From the IMG/VR virus record IMGVR_UViG_3300020166_000747: a stretch of DNA of 64,000 nt; one strand, written 5' to 3'. This document shows, piece after piece, positions 2,077-60,500 of the stretch (positions within the stretch are counted from its first letter, which is position 1; every line of letters begins with the position of its first letter). The notes beneath the pieces are model-generated. The model was not told the DNA's origin. It searched no databases and saw nothing but the letters and a program-made list of their open reading frames with translations. This DNA comes from a virus. The position numbers and the translations under genes were made by a program.

Positions 2077-2104
2077 TTGACATTTTATCGAATCATGCTA
2101 TATT
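2077..2104 (+). promoter_or_regulatory. Sigma70-type early promoter with a GANTC site in the spacer
   Basis: TTGACA-N16-TATATT with TG extension. CGAATCA lies at 2089-2095. Confidence 0.7.
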
Positions 2105-2133
2105 AATAGAGTAATCAAGAGAGAGGAACTACT

Positions 2134-2901
2134 ATGATTAACGCTGATATTTTCGTTAAGAATACAGGTCTAGAAACAGGTAAGATTTACAATCAACCAA
2201 TTAGCAAAGTAGAACTACTTGCACTTGCTATTGTGGCACAGCGCATTAACGGTGAATACTTAAAGCGAGGTGGGGTGTCCGACTTTGTTACTAAGATCGA
2301 AGACGGCGAAGAAGTACAACGCTATGAACGTACCAAAAACTCTAATCGTTTTGTTATGGAAACAGTCCAGCAGATCGACCCAGATGTATTAACTGACGAG
2401 TTGCTTGCAGAAGCACAAGAGATGTTGACTAATCTTGAAATGGAATATATGTTCAAAGTTCTCGCAGATACAATGAATGACTTTGAAAATTCCATTCATC
2501 AGTTTCTATCAGACGAACCGGATGTATCACTAGATGGTTCTAATTTTGAACCACGTGCGCATATTGGGGTTGTTGCTTACATTCCAGCGTATGTAGAACG
2601 TGAGACAAAACAACGTGACCTTGCTGAACGTTCAATCGGTTCTGAGTATTTAGGAACTAAAGGTGAATCTATTTCCGCGCAGATTGAAATTGTATCTAAG
2701 CGCCAAGCAACTGCTTGGGCAGGTTGGAACGTAAATGCTATCACAACTGATGGCAATCGTGTTTCGTTCTTTACTACAAAAGATGAAATTTCTAATAAGA
2801 CTGGAGTGTTTGGTATATATGCGAAAGTCAAAGATTGTGGTACTGTTTGGCGTGAGGAAAGTATAAAAGAAACTCGCCTTAACTATGTGAAGTTTATTTA
2901 A
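2134..2901 (+). CDS. Hypothetical phage protein with probable C-terminal OB-fold
   Basis: 255 aa with RBS GAGAGG. The beta-rich C-terminus (SEYLGTKGE...ETRLNYVK) is a type seen in T4-like phage proteins. Confidence 0.6.
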   Translation: MINADIFVKNTGLETGKIYNQPISKVELLALAIVAQRINGEYLKRGGVSDFVTKIEDGEEVQRYERTKNSNRFVMETVQQIDPDVLTDELLAEAQEMLTNLEMEYMFKVLADTMNDFENSIHQFLSDEPDVSLDGSNFEPRAHIGVVAYIPAYVERETKQRDLAERSIGSEYLGTKGESISAQIEIVSKRQATAWAGWNVNAITTDGNRVSFFTTKDEISNKTGVFGIYAKVKDCGTVWREESIKETRLNYVKFI

Positions 2902-55451: not shown

Positions 55452-56454
55452 TCTATTCAACAAACTTGCGTTCTTTACAGACATACATTACGGTATGAGA
55501 AACAATGCACGACTTCACAATGAAGACTGTAGTGCATTTGTGGACTGGTTCATCGAACAAGCTAAAGCTAAAGGATGCGAAACATGTATCTTTGGCGGTG
55601 ATTGGCACCATAATCGTGCAAGTTTGAATATTTCTACTATGAAATATAGTCTTGAAGGTCTACGTAAACTAAGCAAAGCATTTGACAAAGTGTACATGAT
55701 TAAGGGAAATCACGATTTGTTTTATCGTGAAAGCCGAGAAATCAGTAGTATAGAATTTGCTAAAGAATTTGACAACATCATACTTGTAGAAGATACAATG
55801 ATTGAAGGTGATGTTGCACTTGTCAGTTGGCTAGTAGGCGATGAATGGAAGAAGGTTCCAAAGATTAAATCAAAATACATGTTTGGTCATTATGAACTTC
55901 CAACATTTAAGCTGAATGCTATGGTGGAAATGCCAGACCACGGTGGACTTAAAATGAATATGTTTAAGAACCAAGACTATGTGTTCACTGGACACTTTCA
56001 TACTAGACAAGTTAAAGGAAACGTTATCTACACAGGTAACGCATTCCCACACAACTTTTCAGATGCGTGGGACGATGAACGAGGCTGGATGTATCTAGAG
56101 TGGGACAAAGAACCTGAATTCTTTGCTTGGCCAGATGCTCCTAAATATAAAACTATCCGTCTATCTCAGTTGCTAGATGATCCAGCCAAGTTCTTACTTC
56201 CAAAAACAACAGCGAAGATTTCACTAGATATTGATATCTCATATGAAGAAGCAAACTTCATAAAAGATACATTCATTGAAACATATGATTTACGAGATTT
56301 AACTCTCGTTCCTGTTAAGAATGATGAACATACCGAAGACGTTGGTGCTGAAATTCACTTTGAAACAATAGATCAAATTGTTGTTGCACAGTTATCAGCA
56401 CTAGACGGAACGTATGATAGAAACGTATTGATTGAAATATACAACAACCTTTAA
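55444..56454 (+). CDS. gp47: Recombination endonuclease subunit (Mre11/SbcD-like)
   Basis: Metallophosphoesterase motifs TDIHYG, GD, GNHD, FGH and GHFH. Confidence 0.9.
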   Translation: MTNLFNKLAFFTDIHYGMRNNARLHNEDCSAFVDWFIEQAKAKGCETCIFGGDWHHNRASLNISTMKYSLEGLRKLSKAFDKVYMIKGNHDLFYRESREISSIEFAKEFDNIILVEDTMIEGDVALVSWLVGDEWKKVPKIKSKYMFGHYELPTFKLNAMVEMPDHGGLKMNMFKNQDYVFTGHFHTRQVKGNVIYTGNAFPHNFSDAWDDERGWMYLEWDKEPEFFAWPDAPKYKTIRLSQLLDDPAKFLLPKTTAKISLDIDISYEEANFIKDTFIETYDLRDLTLVPVKNDEHTEDVGAEIHFETIDQIVVAQLSALDGTYDRNVLIEIYNNL

Positions 56455-56465
56455 AAGAGATTATT

Positions 56466-57059
56466 ATGAAGAAAATTTTGATTACCGGTAACAGAGATTA
56501 CGGTCTTTGTCAAGCCATATGCAACATGTTTGATGACAATGGTTATGTGTACGAATGTGCAAGTCGCGCAACAGGGTGGAGTTTAGATAAGAATGAAGAT
56601 CAGGTACGACTTGCAAATCACTACGTAATGAATAATTTTAATGTATTCATTAATAACTCTGCTATGTGGAAATTTCACCAAATCATGATTGCTGAACAAA
56701 TGTACAATGCTGCAAATTTAGCACAAGTTAAATCACAGTTCATTCATATGGGATCAACTGCTGATACAGGTGTACGTGGTAGGACTTGGAGATACCCAAC
56801 CGAAAAGAAAGCGTTACGTGATTACAACCGCGATTTGACTTATATGACAATGGGCGGATCTAATATAAAAACTACACTGTTATCGCCGGGTAGTTTAACA
56901 ACGCCGAGTGTGATGAAAAAGCACCCGGACCGGGCTTTAATCGATGTTGAATACATCGCAGAGATAATTTTATGGTTGCTTAATCAACCAGAATATGTTA
57001 ATATTAATGAAATTAGTTTAGATCCAGTACAGTCTGGAGCTTATGCAAGAGAGAGGTAA
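56466..57059 (+). CDS. Short-chain dehydrogenase/reductase-like protein
   Basis: ILITGNRDYGL, FINNS, IHMGS, YPTEK (YxxxK) and LSPG. Confidence 0.8.
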   Translation: MKKILITGNRDYGLCQAICNMFDDNGYVYECASRATGWSLDKNEDQVRLANHYVMNNFNVFINNSAMWKFHQIMIAEQMYNAANLAQVKSQFIHMGSTADTGVRGRTWRYPTEKKALRDYNRDLTYMTMGGSNIKTTLLSPGSLTTPSVMKKHPDRALIDVEYIAEIILWLLNQPEYVNINEISLDPVQSGAYARER

Positions 57060-57064
57060 GTTGG

Positions 57065-58861
57065 TTGCTAAAACTAAAGAATATAACAATCCGAAACTTC
57101 ATGAGTGTCGGCAACGTCACTCAAGCCATCGATTTAGAAAGAGATTCACTATCACTAGTATTAGGTAATAACCTAGACTTGGGTGGTGATGGTTCCCGTA
57201 ATGGCACTGGTAAGACTACTCTTATCAATGCTCTATCGTATGCTCTATACGGTAATGCACTTACAAATATCAAAAAGAATAACCTAATCAATAAGACTAA
57301 CGGTAAAGGAATGTTAGTCACTTCTGATTTCGAATATAATGGTAATGAGTATCGCATTGAACGTGGTCGCTCTCCTAACGTTTTTAGATTGATGCGTGAT
57401 GGCATTGATATTAATGAAACACAAGATGAAGCGCAAGGTGAAATGCGACAAACGCAAATTGAAGTTGATTCAATTATTGGCATTTCACATAATATGTTTA
57501 AGCACATTGTTGCACTAAACACATATACTGACCCATTCTTGTCAATGAGGCCTAATGATCAACGTGAGATTATCGAAGAACTCCTTGGTATCACTGAACT
57601 TTCTAGAAAAGCAGATAACTTAAAAGATGAAGTTAAAGCTACTAAGGAACAAATCAAAGACGAAGAATATCGTTTGAAAGCTATCGAAGATGCTAACTCA
57701 CGTATTCTAAAATCTATCAAAGATATTGAACGTAGACAACGTATCTGGACTGAAAAGCATGATAGTGAGGTTAAAACCTTATCTTCTGCACTTGATTCGC
57801 TTTCTCATATAAATATTGATGAAGAGATTAAGAACCAAGCTCTACTATTAGAGTATAATGAAAAGAAAACTCGTTTAGATGAAGCGGTACGTTGGATTAA
57901 CAGTATTGAAGCAGACGATACAAAACAAGAAAAAGTTATCTCTAAACTTGAAAACGAAATCAAGTTACTAAAAGAACACACTTGCTATGCTTGCGGTCAA
58001 GAAATGCACGATGATAAACAAGAAAGTATCCTCTCTGCAAAAGAAGAACAAAAGCAAGAAGCATCAATGCAGATTACTGCTAATAGTACACAACTAGAAG
58101 AACACATGAAAATAGTTTCTTCTATTGGTGAACTTGGTGATAAGCCTGTAGTGTTCTACGATTCAGTTAACGATGCATATGAGCATCAAAACTCAGTTCG
58201 TCTATTAGAAGAACAAATTGAACAAAAGAAAAAAGCAGAAGACCCTTATGAGGATCAGATTAAAGAAATGCGTGAAAGTTCACTTGAAGAACTTGATTAC
58301 TCACACATGAATACCCTTATATCTTTCCGTGAACATCAGGACTTCTTAATGAAACTACTAACCAACAAAGATAGTTTCATTCGTAAAAAGATTATTGACC
58401 AGAACTTGTCATTCTTGAACAAGAGACTAGAGCGTTATCTAGATAAACTTGGTCTACCACATGAAGTCAAGTTCCAAAGTGACTTGACTGTAGAAATCAC
58501 AGAACTAGGCAGAGACCTAGACTTTGATAACTTATCACGAGGCGAACGTAACAGATTGATCTTAGGGCTGTCTTGGGCGTTCCGTGATATATTCGAATCA
58601 CTCTATTCAACAATCAACTGTATGTTTGTTGACGAATTGATTGATTCGGGTATGGACACTAATGGTGTCGAAGCATCACTTGCAATTCTAAAGAAAATGG
58701 TACGAGACAGTGGACGTTCAGTCTTCTTAGTTTCACACCGTGATGAACTTCAAGGACGTGTTAGTGATGTATTGAATGTAGTAAAAGAAAATGGGTTCAC
58801 TACATTCGCACAAGAAACAGAGACACTAGAACCCGGTGTTGAATTAGATTTAGTCATTTAG
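57065..58861 (+). CDS. gp46: Recombination ATPase (Rad50/SbcC-like)
   Basis: RNFMSVGN, Walker A NGTGKT, zinc hook CYAC, LSRGE and Walker B FVDE. Confidence 0.95.
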   Translation: MLKLKNITIRNFMSVGNVTQAIDLERDSLSLVLGNNLDLGGDGSRNGTGKTTLINALSYALYGNALTNIKKNNLINKTNGKGMLVTSDFEYNGNEYRIERGRSPNVFRLMRDGIDINETQDEAQGEMRQTQIEVDSIIGISHNMFKHIVALNTYTDPFLSMRPNDQREIIEELLGITELSRKADNLKDEVKATKEQIKDEEYRLKAIEDANSRILKSIKDIERRQRIWTEKHDSEVKTLSSALDSLSHINIDEEIKNQALLLEYNEKKTRLDEAVRWINSIEADDTKQEKVISKLENEIKLLKEHTCYACGQEMHDDKQESILSAKEEQKQEASMQITANSTQLEEHMKIVSSIGELGDKPVVFYDSVNDAYEHQNSVRLLEEQIEQKKKAEDPYEDQIKEMRESSLEELDYSHMNTLISFREHQDFLMKLLTNKDSFIRKKIIDQNLSFLNKRLERYLDKLGLPHEVKFQSDLTVEITELGRDLDFDNLSRGERNRLILGLSWAFRDIFESLYSTINCMFVDELIDSGMDTNGVEASLAILKKMVRDSGRSVFLVSHRDELQGRVSDVLNVVKENGFTTFAQETETLEPGVELDLVI

Positions 58862-58871
58862 GAGAAATAAT

Positions 58872-59048
58872 ATGACAGTAAGCGAACAAATTGAAGAACA
58901 AATGGCTGTATACTTGAAAGAGTCAGAAGCATTTGAAACTAAGGGCGTAAAGGCTGCCGCAGCCCGTGCTAGAAAAGCATTGGGTGAACTTGGTAAACTT
59001 ACAAAGGCGCGCCGAGCAGAAATTCAAGAAAAAAAGAACAATATGTAA
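58872..59048 (+). CDS. Small basic histone H1/Hc1-like DNA-binding protein (58 aa, absent from the ORF track)
   Basis: MTVSEQIEEQMAVYLKESEAFETKGVKAAAARARKALGELGKLTKARRAEIQEKKNNM, with an AGGAG RBS. Confidence 0.75.
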   Translation: MTVSEQIEEQMAVYLKESEAFETKGVKAAAARARKALGELGKLTKARRAEIQEKKNNM

Positions 59049-59056
59049 TTTAACAC

Positions 59057-59085
59057 TTGACATGTGGTGTTGAAACTGCTATATT
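59057..59085 (+). promoter_or_regulatory. Sigma70-type promoter
   Basis: TTGACA-N17-TATATT with TG extension. Confidence 0.85.
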
Positions 59086-59091
59086 AGTATT

Positions 59092-59203
59092 AATAAAGAA
59101 GTGAAGTGTCTCCTCTCAACCTCTCTCAACTATCGGATCTTCTTTATTGTTTCAACACAGAGCATGAAACAACCCGGTGCATCTCTGATGCATCGGGTTT
59201 TTT
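59092..59203 (+). ncRNA. Candidate ~112-nt small RNA or attenuator leader
   Basis: Begins at the predicted TSS. Stem 59092-59101/59139-59148, stem 59149-59154/59165-59170, then a terminator. Confidence 0.65.
59171..59203 (+). terminator. Intrinsic terminator
   Basis: AACCCGGTGCATC-TCT-GATGCATCGGGTT followed by a T run. Confidence 0.85.
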
Positions 59204-59222
59204 AATAGAAGGGATAAAGATT

Positions 59223-59411
59223 ATGAGTGTAACTGGAAATCTACCAAGAAAGACCGACGAAGAAACTGATGAAATGAAAAAAGAAATTGAAAAGTTTCTT
59301 AAAAAAGGCGGCAAGATTAAAAAGATCGAAGAAGGTGAATTCACCGAAGCAAAGGATATGAAATACAAATTTCGTAAGCCAGCTTTTCCGAAAAAGAAAA
59401 AAGAAGACTAG
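59223..59411 (+). CDS. Small protein with SutA-like RNA-polymerase-binding motif
   Basis: EIEKFLKKGGKIKKI resembles the SutA EEFL.RGGKV core. ATG at 59223 follows GAAGGG. Confidence 0.55.
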   Translation: MSVTGNLPRKTDEETDEMKKEIEKFLKKGGKIKKIEEGEFTEAKDMKYKFRKPAFPKKKKED

Positions 59412-59423
59412 CTAAATACTCGT

Positions 59424-59663
59424 ATGGTAAGTACGAGTAAATTTCTAGAATGGGCACAAATGGTTACCGGTTGTACGGCGGCTTTGATAGTGTCATTAAA
59501 CATTGGGGACACATGGGTCTTTTGGGCTATGTGTCTTTTTTTCGTTAAAGATAGTATGATGGGGATGTTTGCGTATATAAACAAATACCCAGGTATTATT
59601 ATGAGTAGCGTAATATACGTACCGATTGATGTTATTGGTATTTACAGATGGTGGTTATTTTGA
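59424..59663 (+). CDS. Small membrane protein (about 3 TM)
   Basis: Hydrophobic 79 aa ending IGIYRWWLF. Confidence 0.65.
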   Translation: MVSTSKFLEWAQMVTGCTAALIVSLNIGDTWVFWAMCLFFVKDSMMGMFAYINKYPGIIMSSVIYVPIDVIGIYRWWLF

Positions 59664-59923
59664 ACTGGATTCAAATAGATAAGCAGATTATAAGCATGAT
59701 GCGTGTAATCGATGACAAAGATAAACTTTATGAAGACGTAAAGCAAGTATTCAAGTGGAATGAATCACAAGTTGAAGCCGCTGTAGGTCCATTAATCAAA
59801 CGATGGAACTGGTATGATATGCACACAGATCAAAAGCCAGCGAAAAAGAAACGTGTTACCAAAGCTAAAACCACAAAAAAAGCCCCTGCTAAAAAAGCAA
59901 GAGCCACTAAGAAGAAATCATAA
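59648..59923 (+). CDS. Hypothetical protein with Lys/Ala-rich tail
   Basis: C-terminus KPAKKKRVTKAKTTKKAPAKKARATKKKS. Confidence 0.6.
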   Translation: MVVILNWIQIDKQIISMMRVIDDKDKLYEDVKQVFKWNESQVEAAVGPLIKRWNWYDMHTDQKPAKKKRVTKAKTTKKAPAKKARATKKKS

Positions 59924-60355
59924 CTTCTTTCTATAATTTTCCAAATATTCAGTAAGAACTTTCGAACTGCCTATTCGAACATTGATGATACCGTTATAGT
60001 ATTCATCAGTTTCTAATACACGGCGTTCAAATTGTTCCCGTGCCTCCATATAACTTAAAGCACCACGACTCGGACAATAGTGAAGTATCTCTCTGGAAAA
60101 CTTGTCTTCTCCTAGTTCTGCTACATCTGCATTAAGATGGTCAGAAGAACCCCAATATGTACGCCAATCGCTTTCTTTAAATCCACGCCGTTTGTTCTTA
60201 CGCCCCTTTAGAGGTGGCTTTGTGGTTTTAAACTTCGCTAATTTCTTACCTACATATTTCCTGTTATTTGTAAGATTTGTAATCAGATACACAAATCCCT
60301 CAACATCATCCGGTAATTCATTAACTATTTCGTTATTATATGTCCATTCACTCAT
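59918..60355 (-). CDS. GIY-YIG nuclease, T4 endonuclease II (DenA)-like
   Basis: GFVYLITN..KYVGKK..ESDWRTYWGSS..YYN. The start was moved to ATG 60355. Confidence 0.8.
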   Translation of the reverse strand: MSEWTYNNEIVNELPDDVEGFVYLITNLTNNRKYVGKKLAKFKTTKPPLKGRKNKRRGFKESDWRTYWGSSDHLNADVAELGEDKFSREILHYCPSRGALSYMEAREQFERRVLETDEYYNGIINVRIGSSKVLTEYLENYRKKL

Positions 60356-60500
60356 TATGTATTGTTTGTATCCTTTAAGGTCTAAAGACCTAATACTTTC
60401 ATAAATCTCATTTCGCTTTCGCTCAACCGATTTAATCAGTATTTCTATTAATAGATTATAATATAATATCATTATGGTTATATTATTAATCTTATTTATA

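Follow-up and report, generated by a model that had tools for sequence, protein, structure and literature searches.

On comparative evidence, positions 59092 to 59203 (plus strand) of a 64,000-nucleotide (nt) stretch of phage DNA, IMG/VR virus record IMGVR_UViG_3300020166_000747, are a gene for a structured non-coding RNA of about 112 nt. We refer to the whole 64,000-nt stretch as the window. Judged by its conservation among related phages, the RNA is a well-supported new family that was previously uncatalogued. Our preferred reading of its function, to which we assign a probability of roughly 45%, is that of an early, independently transcribed small RNA (sRNA) whose CU-rich loop would occlude purine-rich ribosome-binding sites, with the site of the phage gene gp46 as the leading candidate. 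The features of the unit are as follows.

59057-59085, plus strand: sigma-70-type promoter, with TTGACA (59057-59062), a 17-nt spacer, TATATT (59080-59085) and a TG extension
59092-59203, plus strand: small RNA of about 112 nt, from the predicted +1 to the U-tract, delimited by fold, covariance model and covariation
59092-59101, plus strand: 5' arm of stem P1, AAUAAAGAAG, pairing with 59139-59148; the arms covary
59139-59148, plus strand: 3' arm of stem P1, CUUCUUUAUU, pairing with 59092-59101
59106-59128, plus strand: conserved loop core GUGUCUCCUCUCAACCUCUCUCA with two CUCUCAAC repeats; invariant, mean probability of being unpaired 0.81
59119-59127, plus strand: candidate seed ACCUCUCUC, with nine Watson-Crick pairs to 57049-57057; probability of being unpaired 0.92
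59149-59170, plus strand: short hairpin P2 in the predicted fold, with a conserved ACAGAG(A)GCA stretch; four of four pairs covary
59171-59203, plus strand: intrinsic terminator with a 13-bp stem (59171-59199), seven G-C pairs and U6; compensatory changes in seven of nine modelled pairs

A conserved promoter-RNA-terminator unit

The promoter matches the consensus at 11 of 12 positions and is the top promoter-like site in the region scanned (56000 to 64000). The predicted +1, near 59092, is the first base of a perfect 10-bp stem, P1, which encloses a loop region of 37 nt; approximately 25 nt of this region are open and CU-rich. The loop contains UCUCCUCUCAACCUCUCUCAAC (59109-59130), and CUCUCAAC occurs at 59113 and again at 59123, 10 nt apart, with no other copy in the window. 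The 114-nt fold has a minimum free energy (MFE) of -33.1 kcal/mol (z = -4.4), and none of 200 shuffled sequences was as stable. A preliminary description of the locus had proposed this promoter, a start near 59092 and the 10-bp stem, followed by a loop with a tandem motif, a second hairpin and a terminator; we found every one of these elements at the positions given for it. The neighbors of the unit are a 58-amino-acid (aa) Hc1-like gene (58872-59048), whose stop precedes it, and a 62-aa SutA-like gene (59223-59411), whose start follows it. No transfer RNA or transfer-messenger RNA was found in the window.

The promoter-RNA-terminator unit is present in approximately 48 related IMG/VR contigs, which we reached through gp46, and in 30 metagenome contigs, including contigs from TARA Oceans; all contigs with the unit are phages distantly related to Pseudomonas phage PA5oct. 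We retrieved 80 gp46 loci for comparison, and the RNA element lies 3' of gp46 in every relative with a gp46 identity of at least 74%. A TTGAC(A/T)-N16-18-TAnnnT promoter stands at the equivalent place in all 21 representative variants checked, each RNA copy ends in a G+C-rich terminator, and the 20 representatives that were folded singly all adopt the same three-helix MFE architecture. The RNA is thus a self-contained unit of the kind the preliminary description proposed, with its own promoter and its own terminator, both conserved among relatives.

We built a covariance model, R1, from 11 representatives. It scores 101 bits at the window RNA and recovers all main-type copies at 46 to 119 bits, with one RNA copy per genome. 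A weak hit in the complete relative G002 (25 bits), considered as a paralogous copy, was rejected, as it comprises only a gene end and a terminator. The model also separates a divergent group at the same syntenic place (L016 to L019, L021, L023, L027 and L028), in which the loops read UACCCUCUCAACUCUCAUUA or UUUACCAUUCUCUCUAAC and the P2 hairpins are completely different. Elsewhere, too, the P2 position keeps a hairpin in relatives with other sequences, such as UCUC/GAGA or UUCCCUAU/AUAGGGAA.

Covariation in relatives, which had been suggested as a check on the structure, is extensive: 24 of the 28 base pairs show compensatory changes among 28 distinct variants, and none of 500 shuffles reaches the observed values. 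One P1 pair, for example, is AU in nine variants, UA in nine, GC in four and CG in three. In the model-fitted alignment of the 28 distinct sequences, 90% of cells are paired, compared with 37 to 43% when the partners are slid by one to three columns. Because this alignment was fitted to the structure, by means of a hand-given structure and model-based realignment, the pair counts lean towards the model; compensatory changes are also evident in the raw, unfitted sequences. MAFFT and RNAalifold alone recovered only the terminator, because indels in the stems misalign. With its conservation and covariation across dozens of contigs from related phages, the unit exceeds what chance would produce.

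The loop is conserved far more strictly than the helices. Its core, GUCUCCU(CU)CUCAACCUCUC, does not vary among the 20 distinct main-type variants, whose identity outside the loop is 70% in P1, 65% in P3 and 47% in the linker; a poorly conserved loop, which would have counted against a functional RNA, was therefore not what we observed. Exact 22- and 23-mers of the loop occur in six IMG/VR contigs and 30 metagenome contigs, and in four of the six IMG/VR contigs with the exact 22-nt loop, the loop is unchanged while the stem and terminator sequences are wholly different. All three loop types, moreover, retain an ACC followed by a UCUC run able to pair with GAGAG..GGU; in the divergent types this pairing is bulged.

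Translation of an open reading frame (ORF) that starts at GTG 59106 and runs into the SutA-like gene in the window had been named among the findings that would refute an sRNA. In each of the 15 relatives checked, this frame is either broken or no longer in phase, and substitutions in the RNA unit track base-pairing rather than codons. Because the ORF is not conserved, we regard the unit as non-coding, and the non-conserved frame likewise rules out an N-terminal extension of the SutA-like protein from GTG 59106.

No family among all 4,227 Rfam models scored above threshold (E up to 10 for the window region, E up to 5 for five relatives). This includes the AbcR and Cuckoo families (alpha-r15 and alpha-r14), which the preliminary description had invoked: neither the window nor the five relatives gave an Rfam match to them. 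RF02278 recurs below threshold on all six sequences scanned, at 18.4 bits for the window and 21.8 to 27.4 bits for the five relatives, against a gathering threshold of 50. RF02837 (anti-hemB) appears in two relatives, at 21.0 and 25.5 bits against a gathering threshold of 49.5, and gives no match in the window. Since these scores fall far under the gathering thresholds, the RNA is not a member of either family. We found no description of the loop motif in the literature searched, where a motif search matched only papers on miR-320.

The gp46 leader and other candidate sites

Under the preferred reading, the host sigma-70 polymerase would transcribe the RNA from its own early-type promoter and stop at the intrinsic terminator. 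The long stem would present the pyrimidine-rich, G-free loop of about 25 nt as an anti-Shine-Dalgarno-like seed, and pairing of this seed with ribosome-binding sites of the AGAGAGAGG(U) type would block binding of the 30S subunit. The best target would be gp46, a recombination nuclease gene of the phage with a weak TTG start located 7 nt after GAGAGAGGU. Two sites in the window are relevant here.

57047-57067, plus strand: gp46 candidate site AAGAGAGAGGUA with the TTG start codon (57065); top loop duplex, -19.7 kcal/mol
2117-2126, plus strand: second site, AAGAGAGAGG, in the short early leader of a 255-aa gene at 2134; complementary to the loop

The gp46 gene occupies 57065-58861 on the plus strand. 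As the preliminary description stated, the loop is complementary to its leader: nine pairs form with GAGAGAGGT at 57049-57057, which ends 7 nt before the TTG start, and the site is invariant in the RNA-bearing relatives. The 9-bp duplex ACCUCUCUC/GAGAGAGGU has a predicted energy of -16.9 kcal/mol. Among the called gene starts in the window (65 in one scan, 57 in another), gp46 has the best-scoring ribosome-binding site; its site is within the top four of 426 in G002, and it ranks fourth of 183 ortholog pairs in a comparison of the relatives G001 and G002. Within the best 15 of these 183 pairs, gp46 alone has an identical complementary motif in both genomes.

Conservation of the site is detailed. 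GCAAGAGAGAGGUA, followed by 5 to 8 nt and TTG, is identical in every RNA-bearing relative, even at synonymous sites, while the codons just upstream of it vary freely. In L035 and L037, a gp46 site shorter by 2 nt is kept although the upstream gene ends in another frame, and this persistence across a frame change indicates that selection acts on the nucleotides. The TTG start is found across the RNA-bearing clade (gp46 identity of at least 74%). Relatives with a gp46 identity of 65% or less have unrelated upstream sequence and nearly all use an ATG start at the same position; no RNA was found in these relatives.

We found no terminator between gp46, the Hc1-like gene and the RNA. Transcripts of gp46 that read through would therefore also end in the RNA sequence, which could act both in cis and in trans.

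Outside the RNA gene, GAGAGAG occurs four times in the window, in all cases 5 to 9 nt before the start of a large gene (2134, 57065, 62194 and, on the minus strand, 44835). The 8-nt match that had been noted in the leader of the 2134 gene is indeed there (GAGAGAGG, 2119-2126). This leader belongs to a recurring early type (2100-2136, plus strand; L300, L301 and L303), in which a -10 box is followed by 'aatc', A(A)GAGAGAGG, 5 to 8 nt and ATG, in front of unrelated small genes. In related genomes, leaders composed of 'aatcAGAGAGAGG', 5 to 8 nt and ATG follow sigma-70-like promoters, and further early leaders in G002 carry the shorter AGAGAGG. AGAGAGAGG itself is rare, with two to three sites per 342-kb genome. 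In the five records considered, three of the four AGAGAGAGG sites outside gp46 are short leaders of early-promoter genes, like that at 2134; near the fourth there is no start codon. Across whole genomes, complements of the loop are two to six times more frequent in ribosome-binding windows than complements of composition-matched shuffled loops.

Several observations weigh against gp46 as the target, or against ribosome-binding sites as the class of target. Loop and site show no compensatory covariation with each other, and one-sided changes, in the loop of G001 and in the site of L035 and L037, reduce the pairing from 9 bp to 7 to 8 bp. The co-occurrence of the RNA and the gp46 site is a single contrast at the level of the clade, and part of the conservation of the site is explained by its role as the Shine-Dalgarno sequence of a weak start codon and by its overlap with the stop region of the upstream gene. 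Between 5 and 8% of composition-matched shuffled loops match ribosome-binding sites as well as the real loop does. At the tape-measure-like gene (62194), the complementary leader segment that had been described is present in the window (GAGAGAGATTG, 62181-62191) but is not conserved in relatives, and relatives keep the GAGAGAG of the 1,412-aa gene (44835, minus strand) only in part, at a place where the preceding gene has its stop. As conserved targets, both leaders were rejected, given that the GAGAGAG motif either erodes among relatives or can be attributed to the gene end that overlaps it. A general shut-off of early genes was likewise rejected, as early-promoter genes are not clearly better matched (p = 0.45 for duplex energy, p = 0.02 for longest match). 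Finally, we found no conserved candidate target for the 5' half of the loop (GUGUCUCCUCUC), which is itself invariant. Because the comparison amounts to one phylogenetic contrast without compensatory covariation, gp46 is a target that we infer. The proposal of a trans-acting translational regulator encoded by the phage consequently stands in part: the sRNA unit, the open conserved loop and the complementary gp46 site agree with it, but the other leader matches are weaker.

In G002, the 5' half of the loop also matches 11 nt (AGAGGAGACAC) in the ribosome-binding site of a gene for a 121-aa acidic protein (L315, 18200-18593; 218231). This gene is found only in close relatives and hence cannot explain the clade-wide conservation of the 5' half. 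Pairing with ribosomal RNA (rRNA), for which Escherichia coli rrnH served as a stand-in, gave a longest perfect match of 8 nt, approximately the chance level; the top rRNA duplex lies on the sarcin-ricin loop and rests on seven contiguous pairs.

A wider role, which we consider rather unlikely, would be that of an RNA-based translational switch: an early anti-Shine-Dalgarno mimic that shuts off gp46 and the early messages with AGAGAGAGG leaders, perhaps host messages as well, as part of a takeover module beside the SutA-like protein. In a more radical version of this switch, the tandem CUCUCAAC loop may titrate a pyrimidine-binding factor of the host, for example Rho or S1.

The SutA-like neighbor and alternative functions

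The gene that follows the RNA is central to the alternative explanations.

59223-59411, plus strand: SutA-like gene, 62 aa, starting 19 nt after the U-tract; Pfam SutA-RBD at 29.0 bits, compared with a cut-off of 29.3

Although the window protein falls just under this cut-off, all ten of the aligned SutA-like homologues match Pfam SutA-RBD (best E 1e-8). The preliminary description had raised the possibility that the RNA is an attenuator for this gene. In this explanation, the RNA would be a cis-acting leader of the SutA-like gene, and a factor that recognizes the loop would set either passage through the terminator or translation; the factor may be the SutA-like protein itself, RNA polymerase, a ribosomal protein or another host protein. 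The arrangement of the genes is in its favor. The SutA-like gene is the next gene downstream of the RNA in 21 of 22 representative variants (the exception is L029, of the G001 lineage), even though the upstream neighbor varies and may be the Hc1-like gene, an unrelated gene or gp46 directly. In 11 variants, including the window, the distance from the U-tract to the SutA-like start is only 12 to 24 nt, which leaves no room for a promoter, so that expression of the SutA-like gene depends on read-through of the terminator. Leakage through the terminator would thus be the only visible route to the SutA-like gene in the window phage and in many, not all, lineages. The RNA-polymerase-binding domain of the product would also suit feedback on termination.

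This link is broken elsewhere, however. In the G001 lineage (four contigs), an inserted gene for an ATP-dependent DNA ligase separates the RNA from the SutA-like gene, which is found approximately 1.3 kb farther along; the ligase gene (L029, 4977-5600; KLDGIR motif) has its own early promoter (TTGACT-N17-TATAAT), and the RNA and its terminator are intact. The L016 group has a full TTGACA-N17-TATGAT promoter after the RNA terminator. In the distant relative G006, in which gp46 is 65% identical, the SutA-like gene lies tightly behind another gene, and no such RNA was found anywhere in its 151 kb. Taken together, the L016 promoter, the G001 insertion and the RNA-less SutA-like gene of G006 indicate that the RNA cannot be understood as just the leader of the SutA-like gene. 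Nor did we see an antiterminator pairing when variants were folded singly: the loop contains no G, the terminator arms vary without a covarying upstream partner, and no upstream segment is complementary to the variable 5' arms of the terminator. The loop is also not complementary to the ribosome-binding sites of the SutA-like genes, as judged from the sequences. Attenuation may therefore accompany the RNA in most variants, where read-through is the only route to the gene, but with the link broken in several lineages it is not the core function, and we consider a leader or attenuator an unlikely explanation of the element.

The conservation of the loop can also be read as the signature of a decoy or sponge, in which the tandem CUCUCAAC would provide putative sites for a pyrimidine-binding host protein (Rho, S1, a cold-shock protein or Hfq) and an abundant early RNA would titrate this protein during takeover. 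More than 20 nt of the loop are invariant, beyond the needs of one 9-bp target; the motif is repeated with a 10-nt period; a third copy, UCUCAAC, occurs in or next to P2 in L001 and L003; and the 5' half of the loop is without a conserved RNA target. Rho binding sites consist of YC dinucleotides. Nonetheless, the most divergent loop (L027) keeps the pairing potential of ACC and UCUC and not the CUCUCAAC repeats, and Rho and S1 are putative partners; titration of a protein seems doubtful to us. Still less probable, to the point that we give it little weight, is an element like the put RNAs of phage HK022, in which a structured RNA modifies the polymerase so that it reads through downstream terminators. 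The location would fit, with a strong promoter immediately upstream and, immediately downstream, a terminator that has to be passed for expression of the next gene in the window phage. Against it, several lineages have a fresh promoter right after the terminator, implying effective termination; conservation is concentrated in an open loop, not in paired or bulged stems; and there is no sequence or model similarity to a known antiterminator RNA in Rfam. Of the explanations considered, repression through pairing of the loop with the gp46 ribosome-binding site is the one that we prefer.

The spacing between the U-tract and the SutA-like start codon falls into three classes: besides the short distances of 12 to 24 nt and the L016 arrangement, a second group of variants has a gap of 34 to 40 nt that contains a AATAAATA-like motif resembling a T4-type late promoter. 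In L001, L020, L022 and L025, we found AATAAATA or CATAAATAC, both similar to T4-type late promoters, between the terminator and the SutA-like gene. Judged from these motifs, the timing of SutA-like gene expression may differ between lineages.

We also considered a host origin of the RNA. An origin from the leader of a host sutA gene was rejected: a 2026 preprint on sutA gives promoters and processing and contains no such RNA. A scan of genome_contigs (185,579 species) with a profile of the SutA-like protein yielded one match only, on contig JANQGX010000001.1 (L296) of a SAR324 metagenome-assembled genome (MAG). This contig is 109 kb long, has no match to the RNA model, and may be a related phage contig or a hint at the host. 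When we searched the SAR324 MAG and E. coli for patterns that would point to mimicry of host sRNA seeds, the only matches had three mismatches and were at the chance level.

Genomic context and relation to known regulators

Besides T4-type gp47 and gp46, the window encodes baseplate and tail proteins. The gp46 protein shares 51% identity with its counterpart in Pseudomonas jumbo phage PA5oct and 43 to 46% with those in jumbo phages of Agrobacterium and Sinorhizobium. A search of 50,697 deposited phage records gave no nucleotide match to a 901-nt region and no tblastn match to the SutA-like protein. Two relatives are near-complete, at approximately 342 kb. Because no deposited phage matches and the relatives are viral and metagenome contigs, we conclude that the window comes from an uncultured marine jumbo phage, which is T4-like (it bears gp46 and gp47) and probably lytic.

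The 58-aa gene at 58872-59048 (plus strand) matches Pfam PF07432 over its full length (E 3e-10), the chlamydial histone H1-like protein Hc1. This type of protein condenses the nucleoid, and the gene is conserved directly upstream of the RNA promoter in most relatives. Farther downstream, a gene at 59918-60577 (minus strand) encodes a SegE-type GIY-YIG homing endonuclease (Pfam PF19835, E 5e-36) and adjoins a gene-poor stretch (approximately 60366-61017).

Bacteria have several trans-acting sRNAs that block Shine-Dalgarno sequences with CU- or C-rich loops, including AbcR1/2, the Cuckoo/alpha-r14 RNA NfeR1 and CcsR in alphaproteobacteria, and RsaE/RoxS and LhrC in Firmicutes. Like the AbcR, Cuckoo, RsaE and LhrC RNAs, the phage RNA is short, has its own promoter and intrinsic terminator, and exposes G-free, pyrimidine-rich sequence complementary to ribosome-binding sites in a loop that is far more conserved than the stems. 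It differs from this class in having no sequence or Rfam-model homology to it and in being encoded by a phage rather than a bacterium. In addition, where those RNAs have several small CCUCC or UCCC loops, it carries a single large one with the CUCUCAAC tandem repeat, and it closes the operon that contains its best candidate target. The AbcR (AbcR1/2) and NfeR1 sRNAs are described in two publications (PMC8844928, PMC10746234).

Given the recurring sub-threshold matches, the families RF02278 and RF02837 from Burkholderia also invite comparison. Members of RF02278 are 57 to 92 nt long, are expressed in Burkholderia cenocepacia and are toxic when cloned in E. coli, and their function is unknown (PMC4603805). 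The phage RNA resembles both families in being short and terminator-ended, and differs from them in organism, G+C content, length and loop sequence.

Anti-Shine-Dalgarno elements are also found in 3' untranslated regions (3'UTRs), as in icaR of Staphylococcus aureus, and 3'UTRs can embed sRNAs, some with their own promoter, as in enterobacterial DapZ and MicL. The phage locus is arranged in a similar way, with a CU-rich element 3' of the candidate target, no terminator separating the two, a terminator that would be shared with the operon transcript and an internal promoter of its own. Unlike in these cases, the start of gp46 is approximately 2 kb away, further genes lie between in some relatives, and the target is a candidate. 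Phage T4 controls its early messages post-transcriptionally with the proteins RegA and RegB. The factor proposed here would resemble them in targeting some of the phage's own messages at their ribosome-binding regions, and unlike them would be an RNA rather than a protein.

Regulatory sRNAs encoded by phages are known mainly from prophages; in the literature searched, we found few for strictly lytic phages and none for uncultured marine jumbo phages. The present case joins strong comparative evidence for an RNA gene to a concrete hypothesis about its target, namely a 9-bp seed pairing at the ribosome-binding site of the TTG-initiated gp46. If this hypothesis is true, giant phages would rely on RNA to set the timing of, or a limit to, the production of their own replication and recombination proteins, a task for which T4 uses proteins.

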